A DNA stretch of 64,000 nucleotides from Candidatus Eremiobacteria bacterium (GTDB taxonomy: Bacteria; Vulcanimicrobiota; Vulcanimicrobiia; Vulcanimicrobiales; Vulcanimicrobiaceae): assembly GCA_963758295.1 (NCBI GenBank), contig CAVWUU010000004.1, forward strand, positions 992,001 to 1,056,000. Direction: 5' to 3'. Below the pieces are notes generated by a model. That model was not told the DNA's origin. It searched no databases and was given only the letters and a program-made list of their open reading frames with translations. The stretch's first letter is position 1; every line of letters begins with the position of its first letter. A program made the position numbers and the translations under genes. Below are positions 1-24,300 of this stretch, piece by piece.

Positions 1-994
1 AATGTACCGCGGAACCGTCAACACGTCGCGCTCGCGGAGCAATCGCGCCATTTCGACGACGGCGGATGCCGGAAGGCTCGGGCCGATCCGAATGCAGTAT
101 TTCCAGTAGCTGTGCTGGGCGTTCTCTGCGACGAAGGGCGTCACGATTTCTTCGATGCCTGAGAGACGCTCGGTGAGCAACGCGGCCAGGTCGCGGCGGC
201 GCTGCACGATCGCTTCCAATTTCTCCAATTGCGCCGCGGCAACGCTGCCGCACAGCTCCGACATGCGGTAGTTGAGCGCGAGGAAATAGTGATCGGGCTG
301 CGGATCGCCGTAGCCCCATGCCTTATTGATAAACAAATACATCCGGCGCGCCAGCGCGTCGTCGTTAGTAACGACGATTCCGCCCTCGCCGGTCGTGATA
401 TGTTTGCCCTGCTGCAGGCTGAAACAGCCGATTTCGCCGGCCGTGCCGACGTACCGGCCGTTGTACGCTGGCCAAAAACGCCTGCGCGCAATCTTCGATC
501 ACCGGAATTCCGCGTTCGTTCGCCAACGCGACGATCTCATCGACGGCGCACGGATTGCCGAACAAATGGGTGATGACGATCGCCTTGGTTCGGTCGCTGA
601 TTTTCGCAGCAACGGTTTCAGGCGTCACGTTGCACGTTACAGGGTCCACGTCGGCAAAAACCGGGACGGCGCCCTGATAGAGAATGGGCGCAAGCGCACC
701 CATGTCGGTGATCGACGTGGTGATGATTTCGTCGCCCGGTTCGGGATCGATGGCGGCGATCGCGCAATGAACGGCCGCGCTGCCCGACGCGCACGCATAC
801 GCGTGCTTCACCCCAAGCATATGCGCAAAACGCTTCTCGAGCGCCGTAACGAAGGAGCCTTTCGTGCTCGTCAGCGTTCCGCTGCGAAGCGCTGCAGTTA
901 CGGCGGCGATCTCTTCATCACCAAGCGTTCTGCCGGAGGCATCTTGATCCGAGGGAAGGGAACGACGGGACACAAGCGGGGAAGTCGTGGTCAT
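1..994 (-). CDS. DegT/DnrJ/EryC1/StrS PLP-dependent sugar aminotransferase (3' end runs off window; +1 frameshift near 469)
   Basis: SGSAAVH, THLFGNP and EDCAQA motifs. Removing one base at ~469 continues as ATYNGRYVGTAGEIGCFSLQQGKHITTGEGG (PLP lysine motif). Confidence 0.9.
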
Positions 995-1005
995 TGTGTG
1001 CTCTT

Positions 1006-1935
1006 TCATCCAATCTGGCTGTGACGGCGATGTTGCAGTCGACGAGTGAAAAAAGTGCCGGCTTGCCCCGCAAAAATCGCGAGACTGGTGTATTGAACGA
1101 CGATGGTAGCTGCGGTGCCCGCTGCTAGAACCGCCGGGCTTACGCGAAGCAATAGCAATACGGCGACGACGATCGGTAAGAGTCCCGGGAAAAGCCCCGG
1201 CACTGCGAGCCAAAGCGATGGCCGGTACTCGAAGGCCATCCGCATGGTCGCCCACATTTGTTTGAACATGCGCCCTGGGCGTAGCCGCCCGGGAGCGGCA
1301 CGCCGCTCCGAACTCCACTTCAATGTTGCCGGCACCTCGACAACGAGGAAATTCTTGCGCAAACCATCGAGGAGCATCTCAGCGATCGAGTCCATGCGGT
1401 TGCTCTCGAACTGAAGCTGCTTTAGCGCGCTCACACGGAACGCGCGTACCATACAGGTGAAGGTCGCGTATTTCCCAGCCGCCGCAAAGGATAGCAGCCG
1501 GTTTGCTTCGCGGCTCAATACGCGTCTTACCAGGGGAACGTTCTTGACCGAGCCGCCACGCATGTAGGCTGAGGCCAGTGCGATATCGGCCTGCTGGCGC
1601 TCCAGCGCTTCGAGCAATTCCATTCCGGTAGTCGGCGAATAGCTCATGTCGGCATCGAGCACGATGGCATACTCGGTGTCCACTTCGTGGAACGCCGTCC
1701 GCAGTGCCGCTCCCAAGCCTTGATTGCCATCGTGCCGAACGACGCGGACATTCTCGCGCCAACGCGCAAACGTTTGTGCGAGAGCGTACGTCTCGTCGGA
1801 ACTGCCGTCGTCGACGATTAGATATTTGAACTCGTAATCGTGATGGACGGAGTAGTGATCGGCAAGCGTAACAAGGCTGCTTGCAAAGGTGGCGCCTTCG
1901 TTGTACGCCGGAATGATGACGGTAACGCCAGTCAC
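1006..1935 (-). CDS. GT2 glycosyltransferase (DPM-synthase-like) with C-terminal TM helices
   Basis: IPAYNE, VDDGSSD, NQGLGAA and DADMSY motifs. Confidence 0.9.
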   Translation of the reverse strand: MTGVTVIIPAYNEGATFASSLVTLADHYSVHHDYEFKYLIVDDGSSDETYALAQTFARWRENVRVVRHDGNQGLGAALRTAFHEVDTEYAIVLDADMSYSPTTGMELLEALERQQADIALASAYMRGGSVKNVPLVRRVLSREANRLLSFAAAGKYATFTCMVRAFRVSALKQLQFESNRMDSIAEMLLDGLRKNFLVVEVPATLKWSSERRAAPGRLRPGRMFKQMWATMRMAFEYRPSLWLAVPGLFPGLLPIVVAVLLLLRVSPAVLAAGTAATIVVQYTSLAIFAGQAGTFFTRRLQHRRHSQIG

Positions 1936-4067
1936 ACCCTACCCCCCGCCAGCGGCTGCGACGAAGTCGCGAAGTAATCTGAGTAGTCGTTGACACGCAA
2001 CGTGTCTTTGTTGACCACCATTCCGAGCACGTTGTCGATGCCGAGCGAAGAAAGCTGCGAAACGGCGTAACGCGCTTCTTTCTCGTCCGTGTTGCTCGTG
2101 ACGACGAAGATTGCGCCGTCCACTTGCGTAGCGATCAGCAAACCATCTGAAACGGCGCCAAGAGGCGGCGCGTCGACGATGACCATCGTGTAGTCGCCCT
2201 GCACCTTTGCAAGAAGCTCGGAAAGATGCGATTGCAGCAGGGTAACCGGATTCGTCACTTCGGCGCCCGCAGTCAGCACGTCGAGCGACGGGGATGCATG
2301 CTGCACCGCTTCTTGAACCGGCATCGTGCCCGAGAGCACGTCACCTAGCCCAATGGTGTTCGGACAATCGGTCTTTTCGTGCAGGCTCGGGCGGCGCAAA
2401 TCGGCGTCGACCAGGAGGACGCGGGGCTCAAGCGTGGCCATCGCTTTCGCGAGGTGATATGCCACGGTGGATTTTCCGTCGCCTCGACATGCGCTCACGA
2501 CGGCGAGCGTCTTCAACGGCCGCTTGTTCTTCAGCCGCAGCGTGATGCATAGATGCAAAAACGACTCTACGGTCATGGACTGCACCCATGGGAGCATCCG
2601 CCGATTCGGCGTGTTGAAGGCGGGAATGCGGCCAATTACCGGCAGACCGAGACGGCCTTCGAAGCTTTCACGATCGGTCCGTTGTTCGATCAGCTCGAGA
2701 ACGAAGACCACGCCGAGTGAGAGCAACAAGCCCACAACGAGCGCAATTGCCAGATTCAATACGAGGCTCGGACGCCGGATCGCGCTATCAGCGCTGGCCG
2801 GCTGCACGACGAAGATATCGCTCAAGGCAGTGGTTTTGGCAATCAGCGCATCGCTATATTTCTGCGCGAGAGCGTCGTAGATGTTTTGGGCGCGCTTCGC
2901 TTCTTCGCTCAGGGTCGCGTATTGCATCACCTGGCCTGGCAGCGCGCGAACCGTTGGGCGATACGCCTTCTTCTCAGCCCGCAGCGCCTGCAAGTCACCG
3001 TTGTCGCCTTGAATGCGCGCTTGATAATTTGCCGCCTGCTGCTGCAACGATTGATAGATCGGATTCGGGCCGAGTGTCGTGCGGCTGATGACAGAGGACG
3101 GCAGCGCGGCAATTTGCGATAGCAGCGTCTTGCGCTGTTCTTTTAGTGAAATAACAGCCGGATGAGCCGGAGTGTAAACTTGCTCGGCTTCCGAGAGCTG
3201 CGTTTCGACTTCCGCAAGCTTCTCTTGTAAGTTTGCGGCAACCGGGTTGGCCGCAACTTCTTTTGAGTTATCAACCGTCGGGGACATGGAAGCCATTTGG
3301 GACTGCACGCTTACCAGTAGCGACCTGGCTTCGTTCGAATCGACGTTGAGCTGATCCGTCTTCTGATCGATGGCGGACATTCGCGAAACGATATCGGCTT
3401 CGTGCGCTTGAGCGTCGATATATCCATGATCTGACTGGAACTGTGCCAGGGCGTTGGACGTGTCACGCATGTGCTGCTCGGCACGCGGTATTTCTTTTGA
3501 AAGGTAAGCCAGCGCAGCCACGGCTTCCGATCGAACGAACTCGCGCTCTTGATCGACGAAAGTGTCGGCAAAGGTGTTTGCGATCCGTGCCGATTCGTCC
3601 GCCGTCTTCCATGAGATGCTCAAGTTCAGCAACGAGGTATTGACCGTAGGTTTCACGCTTACGCGCGAAAGCAGATCTTGCGGCGTCGTCTTCAGACCAA
3701 GGTTTGTGATCACTTTGGCAGCGAGGTCGCGCTGCTGCGCGAGCTGGGCAAACGTCTCGGCCGACTGCTCGCCATTCTGAAGTACCAATGCGTTTAGAAT
3801 CGGAAGTGCCGTGTCGGGTCCGCCGGGCGCAGCATCCGTACCCGGGCGGCCGGCCATTAAGCGCACCGACGTCGTGTATGACTTCGGCGTAAGCATCGTC
3901 GCGATTCCCACGATCGCAACAAAGGCAAGCGTAACACCGGCGAACGTACGCCAACGCTTGCGAATCATCGTCCAGATTCGTATGATATCGCGAGCATCGC
4001 TTGATTGGCGATGCGGCGATTCGTCACGCGCCAGTGTTCCGTTGGCGAGCGGTGCTAAATTCGACAT
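1932..4067 (-). CDS. wzc: Wzc/GumC-type polysaccharide co-polymerase with BY-kinase domain
   Basis: Two TM helices flanking a coiled coil; Walker A GDGKST, LVDADLRRP, VDAPP; short C-terminal DYSDY. Confidence 0.88.
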   Translation of the reverse strand: MSNLAPLANGTLARDESPHRQSSDARDIIRIWTMIRKRWRTFAGVTLAFVAIVGIATMLTPKSYTTSVRLMAGRPGTDAAPGGPDTALPILNALVLQNGEQSAETFAQLAQQRDLAAKVITNLGLKTTPQDLLSRVSVKPTVNTSLLNLSISWKTADESARIANTFADTFVDQEREFVRSEAVAALAYLSKEIPRAEQHMRDTSNALAQFQSDHGYIDAQAHEADIVSRMSAIDQKTDQLNVDSNEARSLLVSVQSQMASMSPTVDNSKEVAANPVAANLQEKLAEVETQLSEAEQVYTPAHPAVISLKEQRKTLLSQIAALPSSVISRTTLGPNPIYQSLQQQAANYQARIQGDNGDLQALRAEKKAYRPTVRALPGQVMQYATLSEEAKRAQNIYDALAQKYSDALIAKTTALSDIFVVQPASADSAIRRPSLVLNLAIALVVGLLLSLGVVFVLELIEQRTDRESFEGRLGLPVIGRIPAFNTPNRRMLPWVQSMTVESFLHLCITLRLKNKRPLKTLAVVSACRGDGKSTVAYHLAKAMATLEPRVLLVDADLRRPSLHEKTDCPNTIGLGDVLSGTMPVQEAVQHASPSLDVLTAGAEVTNPVTLLQSHLSELLAKVQGDYTMVIVDAPPLGAVSDGLLIATQVDGAIFVVTSNTDEKEARYAVSQLSSLGIDNVLGMVVNKDTLRVNDYSDYFATSSQPLAGGRV

Positions 4068-4234: not shown

Positions 4235-5675
4235 ATGTCGACGCGCATCATAGAGCGACCGGCGCCGCATAAACCGACGATTGTCAAGAGCGCACCTAGA
4301 ATGCACTCTCGGAGTTGGATTGCCGTGCTGTTCGTAAGCGACGTACTGTGCTTCCTAGTCGCTTCGGGCCTCGGCGCGCTCATTGGCTTTCACCATTGGG
4401 ACTCGCAAAGGATCGTTGGGCACTTGCTCGTTGCCGAAGGCATTTTCGTAGCTCTGTGGGTAGTGGTGTTCGATCGGCTCGGCCTCTACCGCCGCACCTA
4501 CGCGCTTTCGATGAAGGACGAGCTGTACTACACGACGGCTGCCCTGATTCTCGGGACGATTCCTCAGCTTGTCTTGTTCACGATTTATCCGGGAATCTCA
4601 ACGTCGCGCGTCGCGCTGCTCTACGGGATGCTCTTCTCCATCCTTATGGTTGGCGCGTCACGAAGCGTGCTGCATCGCTTACGCAATAGTAAGGTGTTCA
4701 ACCGGCATCGCCGCACGTGCGTCATAGGTACGGCTGCACGCGTATCGTCCGCCGTGCAAAGCCTCGACCTTCCCGACGATTCCGAGACGCTGTTGCTAGT
4801 CGTGGACGACATCGACGAGTCGGTCGCGCAGATCGACTTGACGCGCGACGCGGATCTCAGCACCATCGAATGGTTCAAGCAAGCACGCGACTGGGGTTGT
4901 GACGTCCTCATCCTCACCGAGATCGTACCACCGCACCTGGTCGCGCATCTGATTGAGGTCTCGGCGCGCGTTCATATTCGGCTTGCTTTCGCGCCTCCCC
5001 GAATTGCGCGCTACGCCTACGACCTGTCGCTGCAAATGGACGGCCGGCAAGCGCTTATCGTACCGATTCGGCTGCGCGCTTGTACGCCGCGCGCGCAACT
5101 CTTCAAGCGGTGGATGGACATAGCTTTCGCAAGCTTGGCTCTTTTACTCGCGGCGCCGGTGATGGCGATAGCCGCCATTGCCGTTTATCTGGATTCGGGA
5201 TGGCCGGTAATTTTTTGCGCAAGAGCGCGTTGGAGCGGGCGGCCGGCTCTTCAATATTTATAAATTCCGATCCATGCGCCTGGGTGCTGAAGACGAAGGC
5301 GGGGCGGTGTGGGCGACTAAGGACGATCCGCGAAAAACACGCATAGGCACGTTTCTCCGCCGCTTCAGCATCGACGAACTGCCGCAGCTCTTCAATGTTC
5401 TGCGCGGGAATATGTCACTGGTCGGACCGAGGCCGGAGCGCCCCGTCTTCGTCGACTTGTTCCGCACGACGCTTGCGCGCTACGATGAGCGGCATTTGGT
5501 GGCACCGGGCATCACCGGCTGGTCCCAAGTACACATGAAGCGCGTTCTCGAGACGTCGGCTGCCGGCGAAAAACTCGAGTACGACCTGCAGTACGTTGAG
5601 AACTGGTCGCTCTTCCTCGACATCTCGGTCCTTTTTCAAACGCTCTGCGAATTTTTGTTTCACCGAGCCGCCTGA
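4235..5675 (+). CDS. Initiating undecaprenyl-phosphate sugar-1-P transferase (WcaJ/WbaP type); extra T in homopolymer at ~5211-5216
   Basis: N-terminal TMs; KRWMDI, (Q)ERVG..F.IYKFRSM, DELPQLFNVLRGNMSLVGPRPE, PGITGWSQV after removing one T. Confidence 0.9.
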
Positions 5676-5676
5676 G

Positions 5677-6792
5677 ATGTCTGCACGCGTTCGGGTTTTA
5701 CACATTCTACCGTCGATCGAAGGGTACGGCGCCGAACGGCAGGTGGTTGAGTTGCTGCAGCGGCTGTCGTCACCCGACGTTGACGCTCGGCTAATGACGA
5801 TCTACGAGCCGTCGAAGGACGCAGCGGCGAGGCTTCCGTTTCCAATAAATCACGCAGGGCGAAAAAACCGGCGAGACTACTTCTTTCTAGGGCGGCTCGT
5901 TCGCGGCATCCGTGAGACCAAGCCGGATATCGTTCACACGCACACGCACGTCGGAAAATACTGGGGCCGCTTTGCCGCGATTCTCGCCGGGGTCCCTTAC
6001 ATCGTCCACACCGAGCACATCCCGTGCAATCCGAAACATTCGAGCCTGGAACGAATCGCGGATCTAGCCTTACATCCCGCAACCGCACGAATCGTGACGT
6101 TCTTTCGCGAACAAGCAGAGTCACTAAGCCGCGTGGAACGGCTACCCCGCGAAAAGGTCGCCATCATCCCCAACGGTCTGACGCTGCCCGAATCTCCGCC
6201 TGCCGAACGCGTCGCCGGACGGAAACTGCTGGGCGTCGTGCGCGATCAGTTTGCGATCGTCGTTATCGGTCGTATGGAATTCCAGAAAAACCAAATTCTC
6301 GCGTTGCGGGCTTTGGCTGCAATGGGGCCGGAATTGCGCAAAACCGTAATGATGTACTTCATCGGCGCCGGCGAAGATGAAATTTTGTTGCGCGGGCTTT
6401 CCCGTGCGTTGCAGATCGACGAAAACGTCCGATTCTTGGGCTTCCGCAAAGACGTGCCCGAGCTGCTTGCCGGCGCGGACCTTGTTCTAATGACGTCCTG
6501 GTTCGAAGGCATGCCGCTTACACTTATCGAGGCGATGATCGCCGGCGTTCCAATCGTCAGCACCCCGTGGGTGGGCGCCCGCAATATGCTCGGCGACGGG
6601 CGCTTCGGGTTCATTACGCCCGATTATGAACCGGCTCGCGTTGCTTCCGAAATCGAACGCGCCCTTATGCGCCCGATCGTTCGTAAAGAAATCGCGCAAC
6701 GTGCCCAGCAACATGTCTATGCCGAATACGGAATCGGCCGAATGGTTGATTCGCATCGCAAACTCTACCTGCAATTGCAAGGTGCGCGATGA
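5677..6792 (+). CDS. GT4 glycosyltransferase
   Basis: GYGAERQ, IPNG, GRMEFQKN, EGMPLTLIEAM (EX7E). Confidence 0.9.
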   Translation: MSARVRVLHILPSIEGYGAERQVVELLQRLSSPDVDARLMTIYEPSKDAAARLPFPINHAGRKNRRDYFFLGRLVRGIRETKPDIVHTHTHVGKYWGRFAAILAGVPYIVHTEHIPCNPKHSSLERIADLALHPATARIVTFFREQAESLSRVERLPREKVAIIPNGLTLPESPPAERVAGRKLLGVVRDQFAIVVIGRMEFQKNQILALRALAAMGPELRKTVMMYFIGAGEDEILLRGLSRALQIDENVRFLGFRKDVPELLAGADLVLMTSWFEGMPLTLIEAMIAGVPIVSTPWVGARNMLGDGRFGFITPDYEPARVASEIERALMRPIVRKEIAQRAQQHVYAEYGIGRMVDSHRKLYLQLQGAR

Positions 6793-8001
6793 TTGCGCGG
6801 CGCCTTCTCGTCGTCGCGTCTCGATTTCCGTACGGAACCCAAGAGTCGTATCTGCTCACGGAATTGGGCGAGCTCGTAAAATATTTCGACCGCATCGCCG
6901 TTGTGCCGATGCGTCAGCCTGAGGGACCCGTACGCTTTCAAGCTCCCGACGGCGTGGAAGTGCTTCACTGGCCCCTTATCAATGCCGAACTGCTCCGACG
7001 CGCGGCGTCCGCATTCAAAACACATCCGTCGCTCGCATCGCTTGCCGTCTCGCAAGTTCTCCGTTCGCGCGATCCGGGCCGCGCAAAGAATTTTGCCGTT
7101 ATCGTCAAAGGCTTAGCGCTCGCCGATTGGGCGATGGAGCACAAGTTCGATCACATCCACGCGTATTGGCTCTCGACACCTGCAACGATGGCTTTCATCG
7201 CTGCGACAACGAGCGGCATTCCCTGGAGTTCCACGGCGCACCGCTGGGATATTTACGAACGCAATGCCTTCGATGTGAAAGAACGCACGGCCGCCTTCGT
7301 CAGAACTATCTCTTCGCGTGGAACCGCTGATATCGAAAAGCGCATGCCCGCGCTCGCCGACCGTGTCCTGCAACTGCGGCTCGGTACAAACGTGCCACCA
7401 AAGCTCGAAGCACCGGCCCCCCTCGATCGTACGTTCCGCATCGTTTGTCCGGCAGCGCTCGTGCCGGTTAAGGGACACGTCGATCTCTTTGCGGCCCTAT
7501 GCCGTCTTCGAGCACGGGCGAATCACCGTACGCTGTACGGTTGCCGGAATGGGTCCTTTGCGGGAACAACTGGAGAAATTAGCGTGCGACCTCGGCATCG
7601 CCGATTCAATCGAGTTCGCCGGGTATGTTCCCCAAACGCAACTGCATCAGTGGTACCGCGAAGGGCGCTTCGCAGCGATGGTGCTTGCAAGCCGGTCGGC
7701 CGGCGAAAAATCGATGGAAGGCCTGCCGTCGGCGCTCATGGAGGCGATGGCGTTCGGAGTTCCGATTGTTGCAACCGATTCCGGAAGCGTCAGCGAGCTT
7801 ATCGACAATGCCTGGGGCCGTCTCGTGCAAGCCGGGTCGCCCGCAGCGCTGGAAGAGGCGCTTTTCGAGGTCTATCGCGATCCTGAGGGCGCGCGCGCCC
7901 GCGCAAAACGCGCTTACGACGTAGTCGCAAGCCAACACGACGTTCGCATTCAAATGCGAACGTTCGCTGCCGTTCTTTGCGGCGAAAGGAGCATGACGTG
8001 A
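6789..8001 (+). CDS. GT4 glycosyltransferase (WcaL-like); +1 frameshift near 7519
   Basis: HIHAYW, STAHRWDIY, LVPVKGH in first frame; EGLPSALMEAMAFGVP in second frame. Confidence 0.85.
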
Positions 8002-9275
8002 ATATCGCCGTCATCGGTTTGGGATACATCGGTTTGCCGACCGCCGCACTGTTCGCGCAACATGGGCACCGCGTGTACGGTTATGATGTCAATCCGCACG
8101 TACGTCGCACGCTGCAAAGCGGGGACGTGCAGGCGGGCGAAGAGCCGGTGCGCCACGCCGTCGAGCAAGCGATAGCGAGCGGGCACTTCTTCGTCCTCGA
8201 TCGCGTGCCCACAGCACAGGCTTATATCTTGTGCCTTCCCACGCCGACGCACGAAGGAAAGCCGGTGCTTGAGTACGTGGAAACGGCGGCCGCCGAAGTT
8301 GCTATCGTCGCGGAACCAGGCGCAATCGTCGTCTTGGAATCGACCGTTCCCCCGGGCACCACCGATAGGATCTTTGAGCGAGCGTTTGCGGAAGCCGGAA
8401 AAAACATCGACGACTATCACGTTGCGCATTGCCCCGAACGCGTCATTCCGGGAGCTATCATTCAGGAACTTGAGAACAACGCACGGGTCGTCGGCGGCCG
8501 CACGCCGGCCGACGCTGCCGTCGTCGCGGCGCTGTACGCATCGTTCTGTCACGGAGAAATTTCCTTAACGACGACGGCGGTTGCCGAGTTCGTAAAGGTG
8601 GTAGAAAACACGTTTCGCGACGTCAACATCGCATTCGCCAACGAACTCGCGGTCTTTGCTGAAGAGCTTGGCGTCGACGTTTGGGAAAGCATTGCGCTTG
8701 CGAACGCTCACCCGCGTGTGAATATTTTGAATCCTGGACCAGGCGTCGGCGGTCATTGCATCCCGGTGGATCCGCTGTTTCTTGCCGATGCGAATCCGCT
8801 CGTTACGGAGTTGATTCAATCGGCACGACGCGTGAACGAACGCATGCCCTATCGAATCGTCCGGCGGATCTCGGAACTCGTCGAGCCGGCTCAAGGGCGG
8901 AAGATTGCCATTTTGGGGGCTGCTTATAAGGCCGACGTCGACGATGCGCGTGAAAGTCCCGCGGTTCGCATCGACCATCTGCTTCGCGAACATCGCTACA
9001 CGACGGCGATTTACGACCCGTTGGTACAGCACTTTGCACGCCCGCTTGCGCAAACGCTTGAAGAAGCTGTAACCGGCTCCGATGCGGTGGTTCTTGTAAC
9101 GCCGCACTCCCAGTTCCGCGCAATTGACCCGGCGGAAGTGGCGTCACTAATGCGTGCGCCTCGCCTTGTTGACACGCGTAACTTCTTCGATGCGGCAACG
9201 TGGCAACACGCGGGCTTCGAAACCTACTTTCTGGGACGCCCGTTTAAGAAACGGTTGGCTAGGGCAGTGGCATGA
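7998..9275 (+). CDS. wecC: UDP-N-acetylhexosamine 6-dehydrogenase (WecC/WbpO family)
   Basis: GLGYIGLPTA, ESTVPPGTT, CPERVIPG, KVVENTFRDVNIA, PGPGVGGHCIPVDP; GTG start overlapping upstream stop. Confidence 0.9.
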   Translation: MNIAVIGLGYIGLPTAALFAQHGHRVYGYDVNPHVRRTLQSGDVQAGEEPVRHAVEQAIASGHFFVLDRVPTAQAYILCLPTPTHEGKPVLEYVETAAAEVAIVAEPGAIVVLESTVPPGTTDRIFERAFAEAGKNIDDYHVAHCPERVIPGAIIQELENNARVVGGRTPADAAVVAALYASFCHGEISLTTTAVAEFVKVVENTFRDVNIAFANELAVFAEELGVDVWESIALANAHPRVNILNPGPGVGGHCIPVDPLFLADANPLVTELIQSARRVNERMPYRIVRRISELVEPAQGRKIAILGAAYKADVDDARESPAVRIDHLLREHRYTTAIYDPLVQHFARPLAQTLEEAVTGSDAVVLVTPHSQFRAIDPAEVASLMRAPRLVDTRNFFDAATWQHAGFETYFLGRPFKKRLARAVA

Positions 9276-10261
9276 CGACGCTGCGCCGCTTTGCCTTAGG
9301 ATTCCCTGTAACATCGTGGTCCCACCGGCGCGGCTACTCCCTTGAGAGTGTCGCGACGCCGGGCAAAGGTCCTTACTACGTTCAATGGGATCCCGGCAGC
9401 GGCGTTTATGGCGAAGATTGGACCGGAGCGCCGCGCGATCGCAACGGCGTTTTGCTGAGCGGCGGGAATCTTGGGCAGTACCATCCGATCCGAATAGCGC
9501 AGTTTGCACTGCATCGGTTCCAGATCTGGAATGTAACGAGAGATCCGCAAGCGCGAGCCGACGTACTGGCCCAAGCGGATTGGCTGCGAGACAAGCAGCA
9601 GCTCTCCGGTGTTCGGGGCATTTACAAGTTCGAGTTTCCGTGGCGCAAATATGGCGCCTTCGGCGAGTGGTCGTCGGCAATGGCTCAAGGCGAGGCGATT
9701 TCCGTGCTCCTGAGGGCCCACACCCTCGAACCGTACAGCGGTTACGACGAAGGCGCTTCACGCGCTGCATTACCCTTTCGACGCGATATACGCGAGGGTG
9801 GCGTCGTCTGGAAAGACGGCGACGACGTCTTTTTTGAAGAGATCGCCAACGAACATGCGCCGCATGTCCTGAACGGCTGCATCTTCGCGCTCTGGGGACT
9901 GTGGGAGCTTTGGAAAACCACTGGCGACTCATGGCAAGGTTCGCTCGTAGAGCGGTGCGTCGATACGCTGGAACGCCGGCTGCCGGCCTATGATACCGGG
10001 TGGTGGACGCTCTATAGTCTCATGCGATCCGCGTCCGGCATACCGCACGTGGCGACGCTGAAATACCATCAGTTTCACGTCGCACAGATGCACGTGCTTG
10101 CGCGGATGTTCGGTCGCGCGGCTTTCGAGGACGCGGCAAAACGTTGGACGCAATACGCAAACCAGCGGACGTGCCGGTCGCGCCTTGTCGCCGCAACGAT
10201 GCGCAGCCTTCCCGACCGCTTTCTCGGGCGCGATACGGTGGTCGGGGGCGCGCACACGTGA
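9272..10261 (+). CDS. D-glucuronyl C5-epimerase family protein (C5-epim_C)
   Basis: YHPIRIAQFAL, WSSAMAQGEAISVL, FEE, HVLNG, YDTGWWTLY, YHQFHVAQM match the Glce C-terminal barrel motifs. Confidence 0.8.
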   Translation: MTTLRRFALGFPVTSWSHRRGYSLESVATPGKGPYYVQWDPGSGVYGEDWTGAPRDRNGVLLSGGNLGQYHPIRIAQFALHRFQIWNVTRDPQARADVLAQADWLRDKQQLSGVRGIYKFEFPWRKYGAFGEWSSAMAQGEAISVLLRAHTLEPYSGYDEGASRAALPFRRDIREGGVVWKDGDDVFFEEIANEHAPHVLNGCIFALWGLWELWKTTGDSWQGSLVERCVDTLERRLPAYDTGWWTLYSLMRSASGIPHVATLKYHQFHVAQMHVLARMFGRAAFEDAAKRWTQYANQRTCRSRLVAATMRSLPDRFLGRDTVVGGAHT

Positions 10262-11442
10262 ATGTAGCCGTTCTCACGCATTTCTATCCGCCGGAACCCT
10301 GCGCCGCCGCAACTCGCGTTGCGTCGTTAGTTGAAGCCCTCGCCAACCGCGGCCACCATGTGACCGTTGTGACGAATTTTGCGTCCTTTCCTGGCGGGCG
10401 GTTTTCACCCAAGGATCGGTGGAAATTGGGGCGGGTCAAAGACGGAGGGCGCGTAAAGACGGTCCGTTTGTTCTCGCTCGTCCTGTCGCGCATGCCCGGC
10501 AGGCGGCTCGTGCATTGGCTTTCATCAGCCGTTGCATCGACAATATACCTGTTGACGACGCGGGCGCGCTTCGACACGATTGTTGTGAGTTCGCCGCCGG
10601 TCACACTTGGCGTTCCGGCACTCATCGGCAGTTGGCGCCATCGCGCCCGCCTTGTCGTCGATATCCGCGACGTCTTTCCGGACATTGCGATTGCTATGGG
10701 TGCATGGTCGAAAAACGGCTTCCCGGCGCGCGCTACGGAATGGCTCGTACGCCGCTTGTATCGCCGGGCCAATCTCGTAGTCGCCGTAACACCTACCGCC
10801 ATAGAGCAAGTCGCATCTCGCGGCATCTCCCGTTCGAAGTTGCTCTTGGCGCGAAATGCTGCGCAAGAAACGCCGGAGGTCTTGGCGCACCGCAATGGCA
10901 ACGGGTTCACCGCAATCTATGCCGGCAATCTGGGAATTGCGACCGATGTCGATCTAATCGTCGACGCCGCTGCCATGCTGGCAGCAGACGGGATAACATT
11001 CGAAGTTGTAGGTGATGGCGCCCAGCGCGCTCATCTCGACGAACGGATCGTTGCAGAGCGCCTGAGAAACATCGTCGTTCGCGGCAGCATGCCGCGATTG
11101 GAAGCGCTTCAACACGTAGCCGGCGCAGACGTTTCGATCGTTCCCCTGCGAAAAGGCATCGAAGAAAGTGTCCCGACCAAACTTTATGATTCGCTCGCAC
11201 TCGGGTGCCCGGTCGTCGTTGCTGCGGGCGGAGAAGCGTCGTCCGAAGGAACGGAGCTTGGCGCGTTTTGTACGCCCGCAGGTGATGCAGGCGCATTAGC
11301 GACGACGCTTCGCCGATTGCGCGCGCTCGATCCGAAAGAGCTGCGCGACCTCGGGCTCGCGGGACGCGATCGCATTCGCAGCCGGACGGATCGCGCCGGC
11401 ATAATGGCCGAGATGGCAGCGCGTATAGAAAGCTTGGCGTGA
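10258..11442 (+). CDS. GT4 glycosyltransferase (WbuB-like)
   Basis: HFYPPE, SSPP, DIRDVFPD, YAGNLG, PTKLYDSLA. Confidence 0.88.
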   Translation: MNVAVLTHFYPPEPCAAATRVASLVEALANRGHHVTVVTNFASFPGGRFSPKDRWKLGRVKDGGRVKTVRLFSLVLSRMPGRRLVHWLSSAVASTIYLLTTRARFDTIVVSSPPVTLGVPALIGSWRHRARLVVDIRDVFPDIAIAMGAWSKNGFPARATEWLVRRLYRRANLVVAVTPTAIEQVASRGISRSKLLLARNAAQETPEVLAHRNGNGFTAIYAGNLGIATDVDLIVDAAAMLAADGITFEVVGDGAQRAHLDERIVAERLRNIVVRGSMPRLEALQHVAGADVSIVPLRKGIEESVPTKLYDSLALGCPVVVAAGGEASSEGTELGAFCTPAGDAGALATTLRRLRALDPKELRDLGLAGRDRIRSRTDRAGIMAEMAARIESLA

Positions 11443-12273
11443 CCGCTCACACAGTCCACGGCTTTTGGACATGGCAGCTCATCTTTGCAATGGCGCTGAA
11501 CTGCGTGGTGCAGGCGCTAGCTGTTGCGGCTTATGCGGCTCGATTAGCTGGCGCGCGTTCCGGCCGGGTTGCTACTGCTATTTCGCTTTTCAATATGTTT
11601 GCAACGAGCAGTCGATTCGCGCAAATGTTCTACACGCCGATGCTCGGGTCTTTATCAGACCGCGCCTCAGTTGGCAACAATAGATGTTTTCCAATGGCAG
11701 CTGCGTTCGATCGTTTTCGCCGGGACGTTCGGAGTTATAGTGGGAACACTCGCGATTCCGACGTTCGTCATGCTGTACCTTCGCGCGATACACTCGCTCG
11801 AGCGCCACGGAAGCGTCCCAAAAGCAGCGATCCGGATCTTCCGGCCGCTCACGGCCTTCGCCGTACTGAAAGACATAAAGTTCGGCGTAGCGAGTAAAAT
11901 CAGAGATTTATCGTTCCGGCATGTGCCCAAAGACGTGCTCGTGCTCAACACGTTAGTAACGTCGATCTACGGCATCGGCATCGTTGCCGCGGCGTATGCT
12001 AGCGTCTTATATCCTCAGGCTGCCCGAACTGCGGTATTGTCCAGCGGGCTCGTGAACGGCTTTGCCACGATTGCTTATAACATCGTCGTTGATCCGGCTT
12101 CCGCGCTGATCACCGACCGCACCGTGCGCGGCGAACGATCGGTGGACGACGTAAAGTCGCTCGTGACCGGCCTATCACTTACGGCGATTTTAGGATTTCT
12201 CTGTTCGCAGCTGCTGCTTATCCCGGGCGCGCTGCTTATCGAGTGGGCAGCGAGGCTGATCACAGCGCATTGA
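11439..12273 (+). CDS. Amj-family (DUF2837) lipid-linked glycan flippase; +1 frameshift near 11675
   Basis: AYAARLAGARSGRVATAISLFN..SR, SGLVNGFATI, VDP motifs of Amj split over two frames. Confidence 0.78.
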
Positions 12274-12282
12274 ATCGCTGAT

Positions 12283-12364
12283 ATAGGCCGAGAGGCCTAT
12301 GCGATGAGCCGTTCATCTCGAAGACGACCTTGAGACCTTCGCTTCTGGGAAGCACAACGGTCCT
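12283..12364. promoter_or_regulatory. 14-bp DosR-like boxes upstream of wzy/ligase gene
   Basis: Inverted repeat with perfect 7-bp arms ATAGGCC-GAGA-GGCCTAT (12283-12300); CGACC-TTGA-GACCT (12325-12338); AGCAC-AACG-GTCCT (12351-12364). Confidence 0.55.
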
Positions 12365-12385
12365 ACCTTATACTGAACAGAACGC

Positions 12386-13770
12386 ATGATAAACACAACG
12401 GTCCAACAGCTCGGCTTACGGGCGGCGCTTGTAGCGGCAACAGCAGCATTCTGCGTTCTCGCGGTCTTTCTGTTGATTTCGGGCACCTCGCTGGGCGCCG
12501 CCGGCATAGTTGCCATTGCCATTGCGCCATTCGGCCTGTATCTCGCATTGGTTCGCCCGGTCATGTTTCCTTTCGGCTTATACGTGCTACTGATTCCATT
12601 CGATAATTTGCTTGGTTTTGGGTCGTTCGGAACAATCACGAAGTTGCTTGGCGCAGTGGCGGGGGTTTTTTTACTTTTCTGGGGCGTTAGACGACACGCT
12701 CTTAACTTTGGTGGCCGCTCGGTCTTGCTGCTTTCCGTGCTGATGGTGTGGATGTTGATCAGTTCGCTTATGGGCGCTAGATCAACAAGACGCAATGCAG
12801 ATCGTGCCGACCTACGCCGGTCTAATATTGCTTTACGGCGTTGTCAGCGCAATCCCAATCAACGGCGCCCAATTTCGCATGCTGCTGTTCTTACTGTGGC
12901 AGGCGGCGTCATTGCGTCGGCTTATGGTGCGAATGTGTTTTATCACGACCCAACACTCACTCAAAACATGCGGCCGCAAGACTGGTACTTACATTCCGGC
13001 GCGTTTACATCGACCCCAACCAGTTTGCCGATTCGTTATTGTTTCCGGCGGCGATTTTCGCGATGTGGGCCTCCATTTATCGAGGATCTTGGTTAGGCTT
13101 CTGTGCGTGGCGGACCTTGGGCTCGTTACGTTAGCGATTCTTTGGAGCGGTTCACGTGAAGCGTTAATCGGACTGGCTTTCATCGGCCGCATACTTTATC
13201 TTCCGCGCTCTCGCAGGCTATATGCTTGCACTCAATAGTGCTATCGTGCTCGCGGTCGCGGGAACCGTGCAGACATCGATTTGGATGCGGTTTCAACCGC
13301 GATCGACACCGGCGGTTCGGGCCGAACATCAATCTGGGCCGTCGGAATCGAGGCGGCGAAGCATCGCCTTCTTCAAGGATACGGGATGGGAAATTTGCCG
13401 GATGCATATGATTTATTTTATCTCGGCGTACATCAAACTTATCCATTCGGGTTCAGCAGTCCGGCGCACAACCTGGTTCTGCACTATTTAGTGGAGCTCG
13501 GTTCCATCGGGCTCTTGCTTGATGGTCTATTTTTTTTATCGGAATTCCGTTCGCTCAGGCACATCAGGCCGGGCAGCCGAGTACTACGATTACCGAATCA
13601 TGCTCGAAGGCGCGTTCCTCGCATTGGCAGCGGTGTCGCTGACCATCGATCTCTTCACCTACAAATATGCGTGGCTCGTATTCTTCATGATTGCTTTTCT
13701 GCGAAACGTTGCGCCGGTCAACAAGAGCGCCGCGCAGTATCGCTATGGAAGCGAATACATGTTGAAATAA
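12386..13770 (+). CDS. O-antigen ligase/Wzy polymerase family membrane protein, broken by about seven frameshifts
   Basis: Fragments in successive frames give DPNQFA, SGSREA, GSGRTSIW, GYGMGN, AHNLVLHYLVELG. Confidence 0.8.
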
Positions 13771-14565
13771 TTAAACGTATTCTGCTGGCGAGTCAAGCGT
13801 TGAGAAATGCGGCACGCTCCAGTCCCACACGTAAAGCCCGATCCCGGTAATAACGTACTGCGATTGGCCGCCGGCTGGTTTCTGCAAGTTTGAGATTTTC
13901 GGAAGGACAAGACGGAATTCGGTCCGTTCCGGTTCAACGTGCACGAACCGTTGCCGTCGTAAGAGAGCGTGACTTTCAAATCCCACGTATCTGCTGTACC
14001 TTTGTGTATGGTCCGCTCCAAGCTAGATCATTGAGCTGCCCGTCATTGCTGCAGTGCAAGTAGTATTTATTGCCTGCGCCGCCGATGTTTTCTAAGCCGA
14101 AAGCGACCGGGGGCGGCGCTTCGATATTGTCATGAATCTGCAAAATTAAGCTCTGCGTCATGTTGGCATCGGGCGTCAGATCGCCCGCCGTTCGAAATCG
14201 GTACTCGACCGTGGATCCGTTTTGCGGTATAGTCGCTCGTGCTGTTTGAGCGCGGCACCCAGAATCGCCATACAACGAAACGGACTCGTCGCGTCTAAGT
14301 TTGGCACGCGCAATTGAAAACGTCGCGGCGAATTTGGCGAAAGTTTCATACAATTAGCCGCTTCGCCGCCTTCACCGGGGTTAGAAGGCTGGCCGATGTC
14401 CATCGAAGCGTACCGCCGTCTGGCGGCGCCGGGGTGATCCTGGGCGAGCACCGCCTGAGCTTGTGAAGTGAAGAAGCGCTACGTTTTGGGTGGATTGCTT
14501 CGACGTGCCACCCGCGCTGCAAGAACAAAGAAACACTAGGAACATTGCGGCGATAACTCTGATTC
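13771..14565 (-). CDS. Putative lipoprotein with polysaccharide-lyase-like (QIH motif) jelly-roll domain; multiple frameshifts, ends approximate
   Basis: Reassembled fragments: IAAMFLVFLCSC (lipobox-like), SLILQIHDN, WSGPYTKGTADTWDLKVTLSYDGNGSCTLNRNG, GIGLYVWDW. Confidence 0.55.
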
Positions 14566-15555: not shown

Positions 15556-17179
15556 CTACTGCGTAAGCGTCATGTTGTTGATGGTCGCATTGATTTTCGT
15601 CATAGTCGATCCGCCACCGCCGGACAATTCCCAGCGCCACTTGTACGGTCCAAAGTTCCACCACGGATTGCCGGAGCTGTTGTGGTAGTTCGCGCCGCTC
15701 ACGGAAGCAACGAGCGAGCCGTTGCGGTAGAGCTGCGTAAGGCCGGTTGACCCTTCCGAGATGCGAGCCACGATCTTGAACGAATCCGTTTCACCCGGGG
15801 TGTACGTTCCCGTCCACACGATGCCGGCAGCACGTCATGAGTGCCCACATCTGGGGACCGCCCGTATCCTTCGTTCCGTTGACAAAGTTCAGGCTCGTGC
15901 AAGGCGTATCCGGCTCGTTGTAGCCGTGAATCTGCCAAATTAGCGAACGTGCGTCGTTATCTGAGCCCATGCCGGGGCCGCCGCCGCTCGGGGTACCATC
16001 AACGTAATTGAACGACCACGTGTACGTTCCGCCATCCGCCAGGCGGACCGTCGAACCGGAGCTCGTCAGCGGATTGGCTTGATTGCGTCCGCAAGACGTG
16101 CCGCTCAGTGAGAGCCCGAACGTGAACGTCGTGCCGCTGTTGACCGGATTTCCACACTGGTATGTATTCGCCGTCGTCCACTTGCCGAGAGTTGCATCGC
16201 CGGCTTTCCAGATCGTGGTTCCGCTTACAGGAGCGGCGGTCGGAGTCGCAACAGGCTTCGCGGTCGGCGCGGCGGTCGGGTTTGCCGTCGGAGCCGAGGT
16301 CGGCTTCGCTCCGGCAGTCGGCGCCGACGTTGGCGAAACGGTGCCGGCTGACGTTGACGCGCTGTAATGAGCGCTGACTTGCGACGCACTCAAGGCCTTG
16401 TTGTATACAGCAACGTTTCCGATGGTTCCACTGAATGCGGGGTTCGACGACGACGCATCGTCGCCGATTGACAGACCGTAACCGCTGACGTAGGTCAGGC
16501 TTCCGGTGGCAGCGCTCGATGCAACGAGCTTGCCGTTGAGGTACAGGCTTGCCGTCGTGCCGCTATACGTTGCGACAGCGTCATATGCGGTGTTCGCCTG
16601 AAGCGTCGGCGAGGTCAGTTCCGTTAATCCGCTCGAACGCGTGAACTGCGCAATGATCTGGCCGTTCTTGAAGAACAGCTCGTACGTCGCGTTACCGCTA
16701 CGCTGCCCATACGCAGCCAGTACGGTGTAGTTCGCCGGCTCGGCGGCAAAACGGAAGAGTGATTCGATCGAAACGGCAGATGCGGGCTGCAGCATCGACG
16801 TTGCAGCAACGCGGATTGCACCGGCCGCTGACCGCGTGCCAGGGAACGCCATCGCGTTGGTAGACGGGACGATACCCGACGCGTCGAGTTGAACCGACGA
16901 TCCGACCGTGCCGTCGAGGCCGTTGCCGGTCGCATCAACTGCAGTGCGCGTCGAATCGGAAAGGGGATAGTAAGCAACCGGTGTGTCGCTCGAAACAATA
17001 GAACTATAAGACGATTGGGCGGACGTCGATTCCAGAACCGTCTGGCCCGTGGAGCCGGAAGCGGGGAGCGCAGGCAACGTGCCTGATGATGCGGTTGTGC
17101 CTCCACCTGCACTTCCGCCGCACGCGGCCAAACTCAAGCTCAAAGCAATAGGAAACAGACGCTGTAAGGGTTTCAGCAT
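15556..17179 (-). CDS. Lipoprotein: LamG domain + Pro/Thr/Ala linker + polysaccharide-lyase-like domain; +1 frameshift near 15829
   Basis: LAAC lipobox; PVAYYPLSD...LYLNG...VAVYNKALS (LamG); ARSLIWQIHG and NFGPYKWRWE. Confidence 0.75.
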
Positions 17180-21331: not shown

Positions 21332-24300
21332 TTAATGAATCCAGGGCGCCCATGGGGTTCGGGGCGATGCTCGATGTGCCGGTCGGACGGAGTGGCTGGA
21401 TTTTACGACGCGTTTTTGTATTGCAGTTGCTTGCGCCGGCAGCGCAAACGCGGTGATTGTGCCATCCGCCGCACCGACGAAGACCGTTCCGCTATCGATT
21501 ACCGCACCTACATTTCCCCAACTCGAAAGAGCGAAGCTCCACAGCTGTGAGCCGGTTGCTGCGTTGAACGCGTACTGTGTATCGCCCGTGTAGTTCGCCA
21601 CATAGACGACCCCGTTGGCTATTGAGATCGGCGAACGGGGAGCCTGCACCGAGGCAGTGCCGGCCGGTCCGAAGTTCGCACTCCATACCGGCGTAGGATT
21701 CAGCGTGCAATTCGCCTGCATGCTGAAGGCTGCAAGCCCCGGTTGATAGATGCCTTGCATCGACGGCAAACCGACATACATGTAATTTGTCGCCGGATCG
21801 TAGGCGGGCACGCCGGAGAAGCCCGCTTCGTCACTCGTAACGGACATCTGGATGTATTGCACGGGACCCGAACCGATCGAGGATCGGTCGTAAACCTCAA
21901 GCATCCCTGATTTGTTCATCGCTGCAAGCATCGCGGGACAACCGGCAGGCTCGAACAACAACGGCGTCGCGCCGAAATCGAAATCGTCATATCCCGCCGG
22001 CGCCGGGATATTTTCCGGGTAGTTGTTCGCAATAATGCCCAGCGTTGGCGACAGCTCCACGACCTGTTCGGCATACGTCGCGTTCTGCGCCGCGCCGCTG
22101 GTCGTGTCGGCATTACCTGTAGCAACGAATACGTCATTCGTCGCGGGATCGATCGATGCACCTCCCGGCCCCCAAATGCCACCACCGCTGGCGCCCTGTG
22201 TCGAAGTGCCGGTCATCGTGTAAAACGTACCGCTGATGCTCGGCCCGCTAGTGTTGATCGCCACGATCCGTCCGTACCAGGGCGAAATGTCGCACGTCGA
22301 ACCGGTTACGGCATAGAGCATCCCGTTAGAAGGATTGTAGGTAAGGCCGCCGTGCATAAAATTATGGTCGGGCGTATAGTTTGCAATCGTGATCGGCCAT
22401 CCGCCGGCCTCTTTCCCGGTGGCGAGATCGACGGCGTGGACTTGATTTATGCCGTCCGAAAAGTACAACCGGTTTTTGCCGCGGTCGATCGCCGGTGTTT
22501 CTCCAATTCCAAATGTGGACGCTGACGTTCCGCAATTATAGCTGGAAGTCGGCACCGCGTCTTGCCATACGATTGCGCTTGTCGCCGTGTTGATGGCGTA
22601 CATCGTTGCGCCGTACTGCGAGCCGGCGTAGAGAATGTTGGTCAATTGGCCGCTCACGTTTACATTGTTCGCAAGGACAGGCTCGTGCACCATACTGGAA
22701 CCGACGTTGAACGTCCAAGCCTGCTTCAGCGTGCTGACGTTAGATATTCCGACCGTCGACTCGACCGGATTGTAACCGGTCCGCTGCAAGTCAAAGCCGA
22801 ACGATAGCCAGTCGGCCGCCGGCGGCGTTGGACTGCCTGCCGGCGTCGACGACACGCCTGAAGTTCCCGCAGTGTAGTGATTTTGAATTTGCGCCGCGCT
22901 CAGCGTTTTGCCGGCATACACGGCAACTTCGTCGATGGACCCCTTGAAAGCTGGATCGCTCAGACCCGCGTCATCGCCGATCGTAAGCCCGTACCCGGCC
23001 GTATAGTCCGCAAGCGTGCCGGTCTTCGCGCCGCTTGCAACCAGCACCCCGTTTACGTAAAGGCGGCCCGTCGTGCCATCGTACGTCGAGGCAACGTAGT
23101 AAACTTTGTTAGCCGCAAGCGCCGTTGGTGAAGGGACTTCCAAGACGCCGCTGGAGAGATAGAATTGTGCAACGAGCTGTCCGCCGGTGCGAAAGAACAG
23201 CGAATACGGCGCGTATGAAAAGTCGGTGCCATATGCGACGAGCGTCGTGTAGACCGGCGGAGTTGTTGCGAACTTTAGCCATGCTTCCAAAGAAACGGTT
23301 GTTGATGGTTGCAGCGCGCTGCTTTGTTTGACGGAGATAATACCTGCACTTGAAGCGGTGCCCGGGAACCCCATCGAGGATCCCGTGCTCGCAGGCAACA
23401 GCGATGCACCGCCTTTAGTAACGGACGACCCGATTGTGCCGTTGTATCCGTGCCCGGTCTTATCGGTTGCGAGCGTCCCGGTGTCGTCGAGTTCGTAAAA
23501 GGCGGACGGCGCGTCGGCGAGCACGATGCTTCCGTACTGGCCACTAACAATCGGGGTCGGCGTCGGTGCGGGACTGGGACTAGCGCTCGGGCTTGGAGTT
23601 GGCGTCGTTACACTGCCGCCCGTCCCGGCGTTGTAGTGATTCAGCACTTGCGCCGCCGTTAACACCGTCCCGGCGTAAATCGCGACTTCGTCCACCGTAC
23701 CGGCGTACGTGGGATCCGTCAGCGCTGTATCGTCGCCGATACCAACGCCGAAGTTCGGCGTGTAGTTGGTAAGCGATCCGGTCTTGGCGCCCGTTGCAAC
23801 TTGAACGCCGTTCACATACAAGCGTCCCGTCGTTCCATCGAACGTCGAGACGACGTGGTATGTGGTATTTACTGCGAGTTTTGAAGGGGCCGCAACTTCG
23901 AGCACGCCGGCGGTCGTATAAAATTGCGCGACGAGCGCACCGCCGGCTCGGAAGAATAAATCGTATGGTGCATAGAGTCCGTCGCTGCCATACGAAACGG
24001 CGGCGGCGTATGTCGTAGGCACAGACGCAAAGCGGATCCAGGCTTCTACGGAAACCGCCGAAGCCGGTTGCAGCTTAGTGTTCTTCGGCACCGTCACGAT
24101 CGCTGCCGACGTCGCCGAACCTCCGGGAAACGCCATAGCCGTATCGGAAGTCGACGATAGCAAGCTCGGAGCGCTTTTCGTCACCGACGCGCCGATGGCG
24201 CCGTTGATGCCGTTGCCGCTGCTATCAGCAGCGGTGCTCCCGGTGTCGTCAAGGCGATAGTAGGCAGTTGGGCTGTCAGCGAGCACGATCGTCGCGTAAT

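Follow-up and report, generated by a model that had tools for sequence, protein, structure and literature searches.

What does an epimerase of the heparan-sulfate type act on when its gene overlaps that of a dehydrogenase for N-acetylated sugars? This question is raised by a stretch of 64,000 nucleotides (C4:992001-1056000, hereafter the window) from the metagenome-assembled genome of an Eremiobacterota soil bacterium, which comprises 3.03 Mb in 6 contigs and is an estimated ~82% complete. Close relatives of the window proteins are named from Eremiobacterota (Candidatus Cybelea, Baltobacteraceae). The two genes encode P0001, a putative UDP-N-acetylhexosamine (UDP-HexNAc) 6-dehydrogenase of the WecC/Cap5O type, here designated DH_B, and P0002, a protein of the glucuronyl C5-epimerase (Glce) family. 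We consider it moderately probable that P0002 is a cytoplasmic C5-epimerase of an N-acetylated hexuronic acid on the lipid-linked unit of a Wzy-dependent exopolysaccharide. An N-acetylated uronic acid on a cytoplasmic intermediate is the best reading because P0002 is a Glce-family member, is predicted to be cytoplasmic and is tied to a HexNAc-type dehydrogenase.

The dehydrogenase gene starts with a GTG at 7998, after GAAAGGAG, and its 425-aa frame closes with a TGA at 9273-9275. The epimerase gene starts with the ATG at 9272 and has its stop at 10259-10261, a frame of 329 aa. The two genes share the four nucleotides ATGA (9272-9275), as the initial annotation had stated for the wecC-like gene and the epimerase, and the epimerase stop shares GTGA with the GTG start (10258) of the glycosyltransferase gene GT4c. 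Dehydrogenase, epimerase and GT4c are therefore linked in series through 4-nt overlaps. A survey with a single genome for each species yielded 80 loci, 52 of which hold an epimerase at least 50% identical to P0002. A DH_B-type dehydrogenase (59–76% identical to P0001) ends on the epimerase start in 44 of the 52, and the computed overlap is 4 nt in 37 of these 44. The overlap is not due to chance, because the same dehydrogenase type ends on the epimerase start at so many related loci. The remaining loci have DH_B 105–1577 nt upstream of the epimerase (five), no DH_B within 8 kb (two, among them L032, which lies ~10.7 kb from the L012 pair on the same contig) or are too short to judge its position (one). 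Furthermore, the entire gene order of the window locus is syntenic in relatives.

The distribution of the epimerase is patchy. It has a match above the cut-off in 53 genomes of a phylum sample of 301 (including the unpublished G246); within the same family 46 of 206 genomes have a match at E<=0.001, and within the same genus neither of the two others does. The locus is therefore accessory.

P0002 matches the C5-epim_C profile (PF06662) with 130.4 bits (cut-off 23.3), its residues 131–293 covering profile positions 23–187 of 188, which upholds the family assignment made initially. It is the single PF06662 gene in a search of the whole genome. A phmmer search aligns P0002 to human and zebrafish GLCE (6hzz, 6i01, 4pw2; E ~1e-24), with 30–31% identity over ~214 columns. 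The AF2 model, built from a 90-row alignment, is confident (mean pLDDT 96.1, pTM 0.94) and has the same alpha-helical catalytic domain; ranks 1–8 in Foldseek are all GLCE (E 2e-12 to 2e-11, TMq 0.56–0.57), with an rmsd of 1.8–2.3 Å over ~214 columns. P0002 aligns to GLCE chain 313–520, and nothing in it matches the chain before 313 except one short helix, a weak match of residues 64–93 to chain 113–141. According to the alignment, a protein of this length has no room for the N-terminal domains, beta-hairpin and beta-sandwich, which are described as mediating the GLCE dimer (PMC13308652).

Residues were numbered by counting along the P0002/GLCE alignment, fixed by the Y578F entry 6i01. Human E499, Y500, N510, Y560 and Y578, listed as key GLCE residues (PMC13308652), correspond to E190, I191, N201, Y248 and Y265 of P0002. 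In GLCE, the base is described to be Tyr578 and the acid or proton donor Glu499 (PMC12834895), and both are retained in P0002, as are the counterparts of N510 and Y560. The catalytic Glu and Tyr can thus be mapped, and the SAMAQG, VLNG, YHxxH (as YHQFH) and FEEI motifs of the initial annotation were each located in the translation. Among 18 clade members at 49–68% identity, E189, E190, N201, Y248, Y265, H266 and H269 are invariant, a pattern that points to an active site under selection; position 191 holds I, V or C throughout this set.

P0002 is predicted to be soluble and cytoplasmic. It differs from GLCE in having neither membrane anchor nor signal peptide, and a hydropathy scan, which found no hydrophobic segment (the Kyte-Doolittle mean over 18 residues reaches at most 0.13 within the N-terminal 70 residues and 1.02 in the whole protein), agrees with the earlier remark that a signal peptide is not obvious. 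Export by Tat or Sec through the N-terminal segment LRRFALGFP, which looks like a twin-arginine motif, was considered and rejected: the RR is not conserved, being RC, RK, KR, RQ or RS in relatives, the segment lies internally in four of these, and there is no hydrophobic core after it. Among the single-domain representatives of the family, 99 of 118 are without an N-terminal hydrophobic segment. Prediction of a P0001/P0002 complex was uninformative (score 0.00, mark 0.32).

The FEEI of P0002 had been regarded as a departure from the EEY normal for the family. It is unremarkable, since roughly half the prokaryotic relatives have no Tyr at this position. Across 154 domains, from P0002 and 150 database representatives, the residue at the Y500 position is Y in 68, V in 38, F in 14, I in 13, L in 5, C in 4 and A in 3. 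The survey was extended to a set of 201 domains with 80 metagenome loci and with 40 loci from another phylum, where the family is present in 112 of 167 genomes and all 40 loci taken have Y or F. Counted over flanks whose length varies between loci, a HexNAc-type dehydrogenase flanks 63 of the 90 domains with an aliphatic residue at 191, a Ugd-like dehydrogenase 2 and neither 25; for the 110 aromatic domains the corresponding numbers are 2, 3 and 105, and the single domain with another residue has neither. Position 191 was rejected as a demonstrated specificity determinant: the association is confounded by phylogeny, the residue class changing only 4 times on the FastTree tree of the 201 domains, and the independent-pairs test has no power (p=1). 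The EE[I/V/C/A] motif is instead the mark of a clade that holds nearly all HexNAc-linked loci.

The identity of the overlapping dehydrogenase is central to the choice of substrate. P0001 carries all three UDPG_MGDP_dh domains (PF03721, PF00984, PF03720). Its top specific models are those of UDP-N-acetylmannosamine (UDP-ManNAc) dehydrogenase, NF040825 (363 bits) and NF008286 (356 bits), whereas the models of TuaD (UDP-glucose dehydrogenase) and TviB give 178 and 138 bits. The nearest solved structures are 4r16 (317 bits) and Cap5O (277 bits), with UDP-glucose dehydrogenases at ~160. The GGHCIP motif (G251-G252-H253-C254-I255-P256) is invariant among 28 sequences, and we take Cys254 to be the conserved active-site Cys of nucleotide-sugar dehydrogenases. 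These matches point to a HexNAc-type, not a glucose-type, dehydrogenase. No second nucleotide-sugar dehydrogenase was found in the window by Pfam scans of the larger open reading frames or by a whole-genome PF03721 search, in which P0001 was the sole in-window match.

Other genes of the locus suggest a further modification of the sugar. The WbpA/B/E/D/I (WlbA-D) pathway makes UDP-2,3-diacetamido-2,3-dideoxy-D-mannuronic acid and, to our knowledge, includes no C5-epimerase. Locus and genome encode a 6-dehydrogenase, a GFO/IDH/MocA 3-dehydrogenase, a DegT aminotransferase, a 3mqg-like acetyltransferase and, elsewhere, a 2-epimerase, so that four of the five functions lie in the window's locus. 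The best PDB match of the WlbB-like acetyltransferase is 3mqg (116 bits), presumably WlbB, the UDP-GlcNAc3NA N-acetyltransferase, and the best relatives of the GFO/IDH/MocA protein are sugar C3 oxidoreductases, including 3q2k (85 bits) and 3q2i (82 bits), both of which we take to be WlbA. The DegT aminotransferase matches WbpE with 97 bits, a match that does not discriminate, since many similar aminotransferases also match.

All five functions occur together in a second glycan locus at C4:244-250 kb (L090 8305-15950 = C4:244305-251950), in the order DH_A dehydrogenase, GFO enzyme, acetyltransferase (3mqg, 199 bits), C3-type aminotransferase, 2-epimerase and GT4s. We take this to be the WbpA/B/D/E/I pathway set; no C5-epimerase lies beside it. 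DH_A is 34% identical to P0001, and the window-locus 3-dehydrogenase, aminotransferase and acetyltransferase are divergent paralogues, 25–43% identical to this canonical set. No NCBIfam equivalog model was passed by the diacetamido-uronic acid genes. The PF02350 2-epimerases of the genome are at C4:248420 and at C1:221287 (wecB model, 472 bits), the latter a housekeeping-looking wecB adjoining a WecA/TagO-family gene and the atp operon. DH_B-type loci have no WecB-like match in their flanks.

Loci of other arrangement give the best pointer to the substrate. At L066 a phosphotransferase, the epimerase, GT4a, GT4b, GT4c, a DH_A-type dehydrogenase, GFO enzyme, acetyltransferase, aminotransferase and 2-epimerase follow each other on one strand, and the five pathway genes are 51–73% identical to their counterparts in the second glycan locus described above. 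L062 shows a shortened form of this arrangement, and L085, L203 and L220 are further variants of it; at L169 the five-gene set is convergent on the epimerase. The epimerase thus travels with genes for uronic acids that are N-acetylated and often 2,3-di-N-acetylated, no matter which paralogues provide these genes. The substrate may be a 2,3-diacetamido uronic acid, because of the 3-dehydrogenase, aminotransferase and acetyltransferase of the window's locus and because relatives of the epimerase lie inside WbpA/B/D/E/I-like operons.

At which level the epimerase acts is a separate question. Because its gene overlaps that of the dehydrogenase, we keep open a nucleotide-sugar substrate: a UDP-HexNAc-uronic acid would be converted to the UDP-L-sugar acid, followed by transfer by a GT4. 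The retention of the overlap in 44 of the 52 loci, the predicted soluble, cytoplasmic nature of the enzyme and the persistence of the association where gene order is altered (at L171 the epimerase comes first, then a DH_B-type dehydrogenase) are all consistent with this. However, family members are described as acting on chains and not on nucleotide sugars (PMC13308652, PMC4432689), L061 and L064 have the epimerase after the phosphotransferase and lack any dehydrogenase within 8 kb, and the 150 representatives include fusions to GT4 (8 proteins), GT2, Wzx-type and Wzy_C domains, that is to glycosyltransferases, flippases and polymerases, and not credibly to dehydrogenases. We therefore regard action on the nucleotide sugar as unlikely. 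A lipid-linked oligosaccharide is favoured because of these fusions, the cytoplasmic forms, the overlap with GT4c and the model for VpsJ of Vibrio cholerae, which is proposed to act on a disaccharide linked to bactoprenyl diphosphate (PMC13463779).

Some relatives (P0165, P0185, P0190, P0236, P0245 and P0261) carry three CW_binding_2 repeats, and fusions to such cell-wall-binding repeats occur in Firmicutes-like proteins; these members are presumably extracellular and act on the finished polymer, unlike the cytoplasmic forms. P0122 (735 aa) was considered as a natural dehydrogenase-epimerase fusion and rejected: its dehydrogenase match ends at residue 312, the UDP-binding domain was undetected and G, A and C stand in place of N201, Y248 and Y265. 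Frameshift or decay of the sequence is the probable explanation.

In the route that we favour, P0001 would oxidise a UDP-HexNAc to the UDP-HexNAc-uronic acid. The UDP-HexNAc may be UDP-ManNAc from the housekeeping WecB, with C3 amination and acetylation coming after its oxidation; this would reconcile the WecC-like P0001 with the lack of a 2-epimerase in the locus. The divergent operon, with its 3-dehydrogenase, aminotransferase and WlbB-like acetyltransferase, could convert the acid to a 2,3-diacetamido uronic acid, which one of the GT4s would move onto the undecaprenyl-diphosphate-linked acceptor. Tyr265 (human Y578) would then take H5, and Glu190 (human E499) would re-protonate from the opposite face. 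The product would be an L-residue, from a manno acid for example L-GulNAcA or L-GulNAc3NAcA, and GT4c, whose start overlaps the epimerase stop, would extend the unit next. The favoured substrate is thus a 2-acetamido or 2,3-diacetamido hexuronic acid, e.g. ManNAc(3NAc)A, giving L-GulNAc(3NAc)A. The initial annotation had suggested ManNAcA, GlcNAcA or GalNAcA on a cytoplasmic lipid-linked unit; the tie to a HexNAc-type dehydrogenase and the predicted cytoplasmic location speak for this suggestion, which omitted the diacetamido acids; it is plausible, and the comparison of loci has strengthened it.

Several observations weigh against an N-acetylated substrate. P0001 scores below the equivalog cut-offs of both UDP-ManNAc dehydrogenase models (750 and 459 bits), and its exact substrate is therefore not fixed. 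Neither the window nor the locus holds a UDP-GlcNAc 2-epimerase gene (PF02350). Five genomes in which no dehydrogenase adjoins the epimerase, including the unpublished G476, are without a DH_B-type gene altogether; the sole dehydrogenase match in four is 36–37% identical to P0001, and G473 has none at E<=1e-30. The link between residue 191 and the dehydrogenase comes down to 2 (supported) to 4 independent pairs (sign test, p=1). Several genes of the locus read as frameshifted, so that it could be decaying in this genome. Finally, Tyr500, a key residue of GLCE, is Ile in P0002, four of the five key residues being kept. The loss of this Tyr, together with clearly degenerate sites in the clade relatives P0122, P0132, P0137 and P0141, would fit a protein that is no longer an epimerase and serves as a binding or scaffold subunit of an assembly complex, or as a lyase-like enzyme working through C5 proton abstraction. 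The invariance of seven active-site residues in 18 members, from E189 to H269, makes such a role very improbable.

The genome also encodes a UDP-glucose-type dehydrogenase at C4:778403, ~214 kb from the locus (TuaD model, 447 bits), and glucuronic acid (GlcA) is therefore a possible substrate; the initial remark that UDP-glucose dehydrogenase is absent from the window holds. P0002 could then be an ordinary D-glucuronyl C5-epimerase making L-iduronic acid (IdoA) from UDP-GlcA supplied by the distant enzyme, with P0001 serving another sugar of the repeat unit. Its proton-transfer pair is conserved, and conversion of GlcA to IdoA is, as the family is described in PMC13308652 and PMC4432689, the sole activity demonstrated for it. 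The only bacterial Glce-family enzyme described there as assayed, RED65_08024 of Bermanella marisrubri, acts on the GlcA of desulfated heparin or heparan sulfate. On the other hand, the dehydrogenase in the conserved overlap is of the HexNAc type, a Ugd-like gene flanks only 5 of the 201 epimerase domains, two of those five being of the aliphatic type like P0002, and epimerase genes recur within diacetamido-uronic-acid operons. We consider GlcA as the substrate quite unlikely, and retain the N-acetylated uronic acid as the preferred one.

P0002 may be set beside known enzymes. It differs from GLCE in its gene partners as well, which would make N-acetylated uronic acids and not heparosan. Compared by description, RED65_08024 is likewise a prokaryotic PF06662 protein, of 448 aa (Table 2 in PMC3068255); it was assayed on desulfated heparin or heparan sulfate only, converting GlcA to IdoA (PMC13308652, PMC4432689). 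The C5 chemistry proposed for VpsJ, ManNAcA to L-GulNAcA, is that proposed here for P0002, as are its setting in a Wzx/Wzy pathway on a bactoprenyl-diphosphate-linked intermediate and its feed from WecB/WecC-like enzymes (PMC13463779). However, the VpsJ authors report no informative sequence match, a GlcNAc/cellobiose 2-epimerase-like fold and a new class (PMC13463779), whereas P0002 is a clear Glce-family member with cellobiose 2-epimerases as second-tier matches; VpsJ too was compared by description. Agl32 and VpsJ, both recent C5-epimerases, are placed outside the Glce family by their authors (PMC13308652, PMC13463779, PMC12624080). The next fold matches of P0002 after GLCE are cellobiose 2-epimerases (E ~3e-4), and the nearest fold class of VpsJ and Agl32 is also reported as cellobiose 2-epimerase-like. 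Uronyl C5-epimerases of the Glce, VpsJ and Agl32 types may share one ancient alpha/alpha-barrel scaffold.

A survey of prokaryotic pfam06662 proteins placed their genes in polysaccharide clusters and suggested variant specificities (Raedts et al. 2011, PMC3068255), and its section 14 does not name HexNAc-uronic acids. A literature search, with most subscription journals outside its coverage, found no paper linking a PF06662 protein to ManNAcA-type substrates and none under the names of di-N-acetyl-L-guluronic acid; VpsJ (2026) was the only enzyme found that is proposed to make L-configured N-acetylated uronic acids. Epimerisation of an N-acetylated sugar acid is an activity not yet shown for the Glce family. 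The specificity would thus be new for the family, as had been proposed, although the same chemistry has already been suggested for VpsJ (PMC13463779).

We tentatively extend the proposal, with clear reservations, to the whole EE[I/V/C/A] clade, which might be the missing C5-epimerase for L-configured N-acetyl- and di-N-acetyl-hexosaminuronic acids, cytoplasmic and acting on lipid-linked units, the loss of the Tyr accommodating the 2-acetamido group. Antigens and biofilm polymers of bacteria include N-acetylated uronic acids of L-configuration. If true, such residues are made by a widely distributed clade related to the heparan-sulfate epimerase, and the family's substrate range extends beyond GlcA; gene clusters could be read for L-configured N-acetylated uronic acids, and a small soluble epimerase would be usable in chemoenzymatic synthesis.

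Some further variation in the epimerase was observed. A sister clade (P0123, P0125, P0128) appears to have a GINT1_N-containing N-terminal extension of 470–520 aa. An additional N-terminal GINT1_N region is present on the epimerase of database representatives from the clade of the five loci with DH_B 105–1577 nt upstream, and such an extension would agree with the place of DH_B at L049-L051 and L057, where it precedes the epimerase domain by ~1.55–1.58 kb. In some genomes a super-locus contains two copies of the epimerase (L048; L012 and L032, which share a contig); the extra copy of L048 (3454-4416) has a degenerate active site, with EGVCDR at the six scored positions.

The genes around P0001 and P0002 (Table 1) form one Wzy-type polysaccharide locus, which covers window positions 1 to ~14000 and ~6 kb upstream of the window and consists of two divergent operons. 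Plus-strand genes run from the phosphoglycosyltransferase through GT4a, GT4b, dehydrogenase, epimerase, GT4c and the Amj-type flippase to the Wzy-like gene; the Wzz/kinase, GT2 and DegT aminotransferase genes lie on the minus strand. Beyond the upstream edge of the window follow the GFO/IDH/MocA oxidoreductase, the hexapeptide acetyltransferase, an FAD amine-oxidase-like protein and a polysaccharide deacetylase.

Table 1. Genes of the polysaccharide locus within the window (window coordinates)
Feature	Position	Strand	Basis and remarks
DegT-family sugar aminotransferase	1..1318	-	Pfam PF01041 in both pieces; two frames (365-1318, 1-342), extends upstream of the window
GT2 glycosyltransferase	1006..1935	-	Pfam PF00535, 105 bits; syntenic in relatives
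Wzz/GNVR chain-length regulator with fused P-loop (BY-kinase-like) domain	1932..4067	-	Pfam Wzz, GNVR, ParA/AAA_31
Initiating polyprenyl-phosphate sugar phosphotransferase (Bac_transf)	4235..5675	+	PF02397 in both pieces, TIGR03025; two frames (4235-5263, 5274-5675)
GT4a glycosyltransferase	5596..6792 (start position uncertain)	+	Pfam Glycos_transf_1, Glyco_transf_4
GT4b, GT4-like glycosyltransferase	6789..7886	+	NCBIfam EpsE GT4 model, 51 bits, under cut-off; no match in Pfam scan; syntenic
UDP-HexNAc 6-dehydrogenase, WecC/Cap5O-like, DH_B (P0001), putative	7998..9275	+	UDP-ManNAc dehydrogenase models, PDB 4r16/Cap5O
Glce-family (C5-epim_C) epimerase, predicted soluble, 329 aa (P0002)	9272..10261	+	PF06662, phmmer, AF2, Foldseek
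GT4c glycosyltransferase, WcaI-like	10258..11442	+	Pfam; NCBIfam NF007640, 110 bits, under cut-off; 3' of epimerase in relatives
Amj-family flippase	11439..12273	+	Pfam PF10997 in both pieces; two frames
Wzy-like polymerase	12386..13850	+	Pfam Wzy_C on 13281-13850; several frames; both pieces with syntenic counterparts

Counterparts of GT4a adjoin the epimerase in L062 and L066. At least five genes read in two or more frames; four of these, for the DegT aminotransferase, phosphotransferase, Amj and Wzy-like proteins, belong to the window and one, for the 2-epimerase, to the second locus. The regions concerned are window positions 342-365, 5263-5274, 11569-11897 and 12386-13850 and at L090 12426-13438. 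The spacing of the phosphotransferase pieces is 1039 nt in the window against 1038 nt, in one frame, in L009. The split frames stem either from assembly indels or from a decay that affects the two polysaccharide loci alike. The Wzy-like gene of relatives sits between GT4c and Amj and is read from the other strand (L009 10593-12700), whereas that of the window comes after Amj and shares its strand (11439-13850), the result of either inversion, rearrangement or mis-assembly.

The genes of the polysaccharide deacetylase and the FAD amine-oxidase-like protein (NF005560, 462 bits; L089 15804-18085) are co-transcribed with the acetyltransferase, and the pair is kept in L059, L061 and L064; the two proteins may modify the amino sugar further. 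Just past the polysaccharide genes, two large Laminin_G_3 (concanavalin-like) proteins (15791-17179 and 21332-24430), one of them also with PQQ beta-propeller repeats, lie either side of a LuxR-type response regulator. Further downstream, a multicopper oxidase gene (37273-39164) appears split into the overlapping open reading frames 37273-38520 and 38463-39164, possibly by a frameshift.

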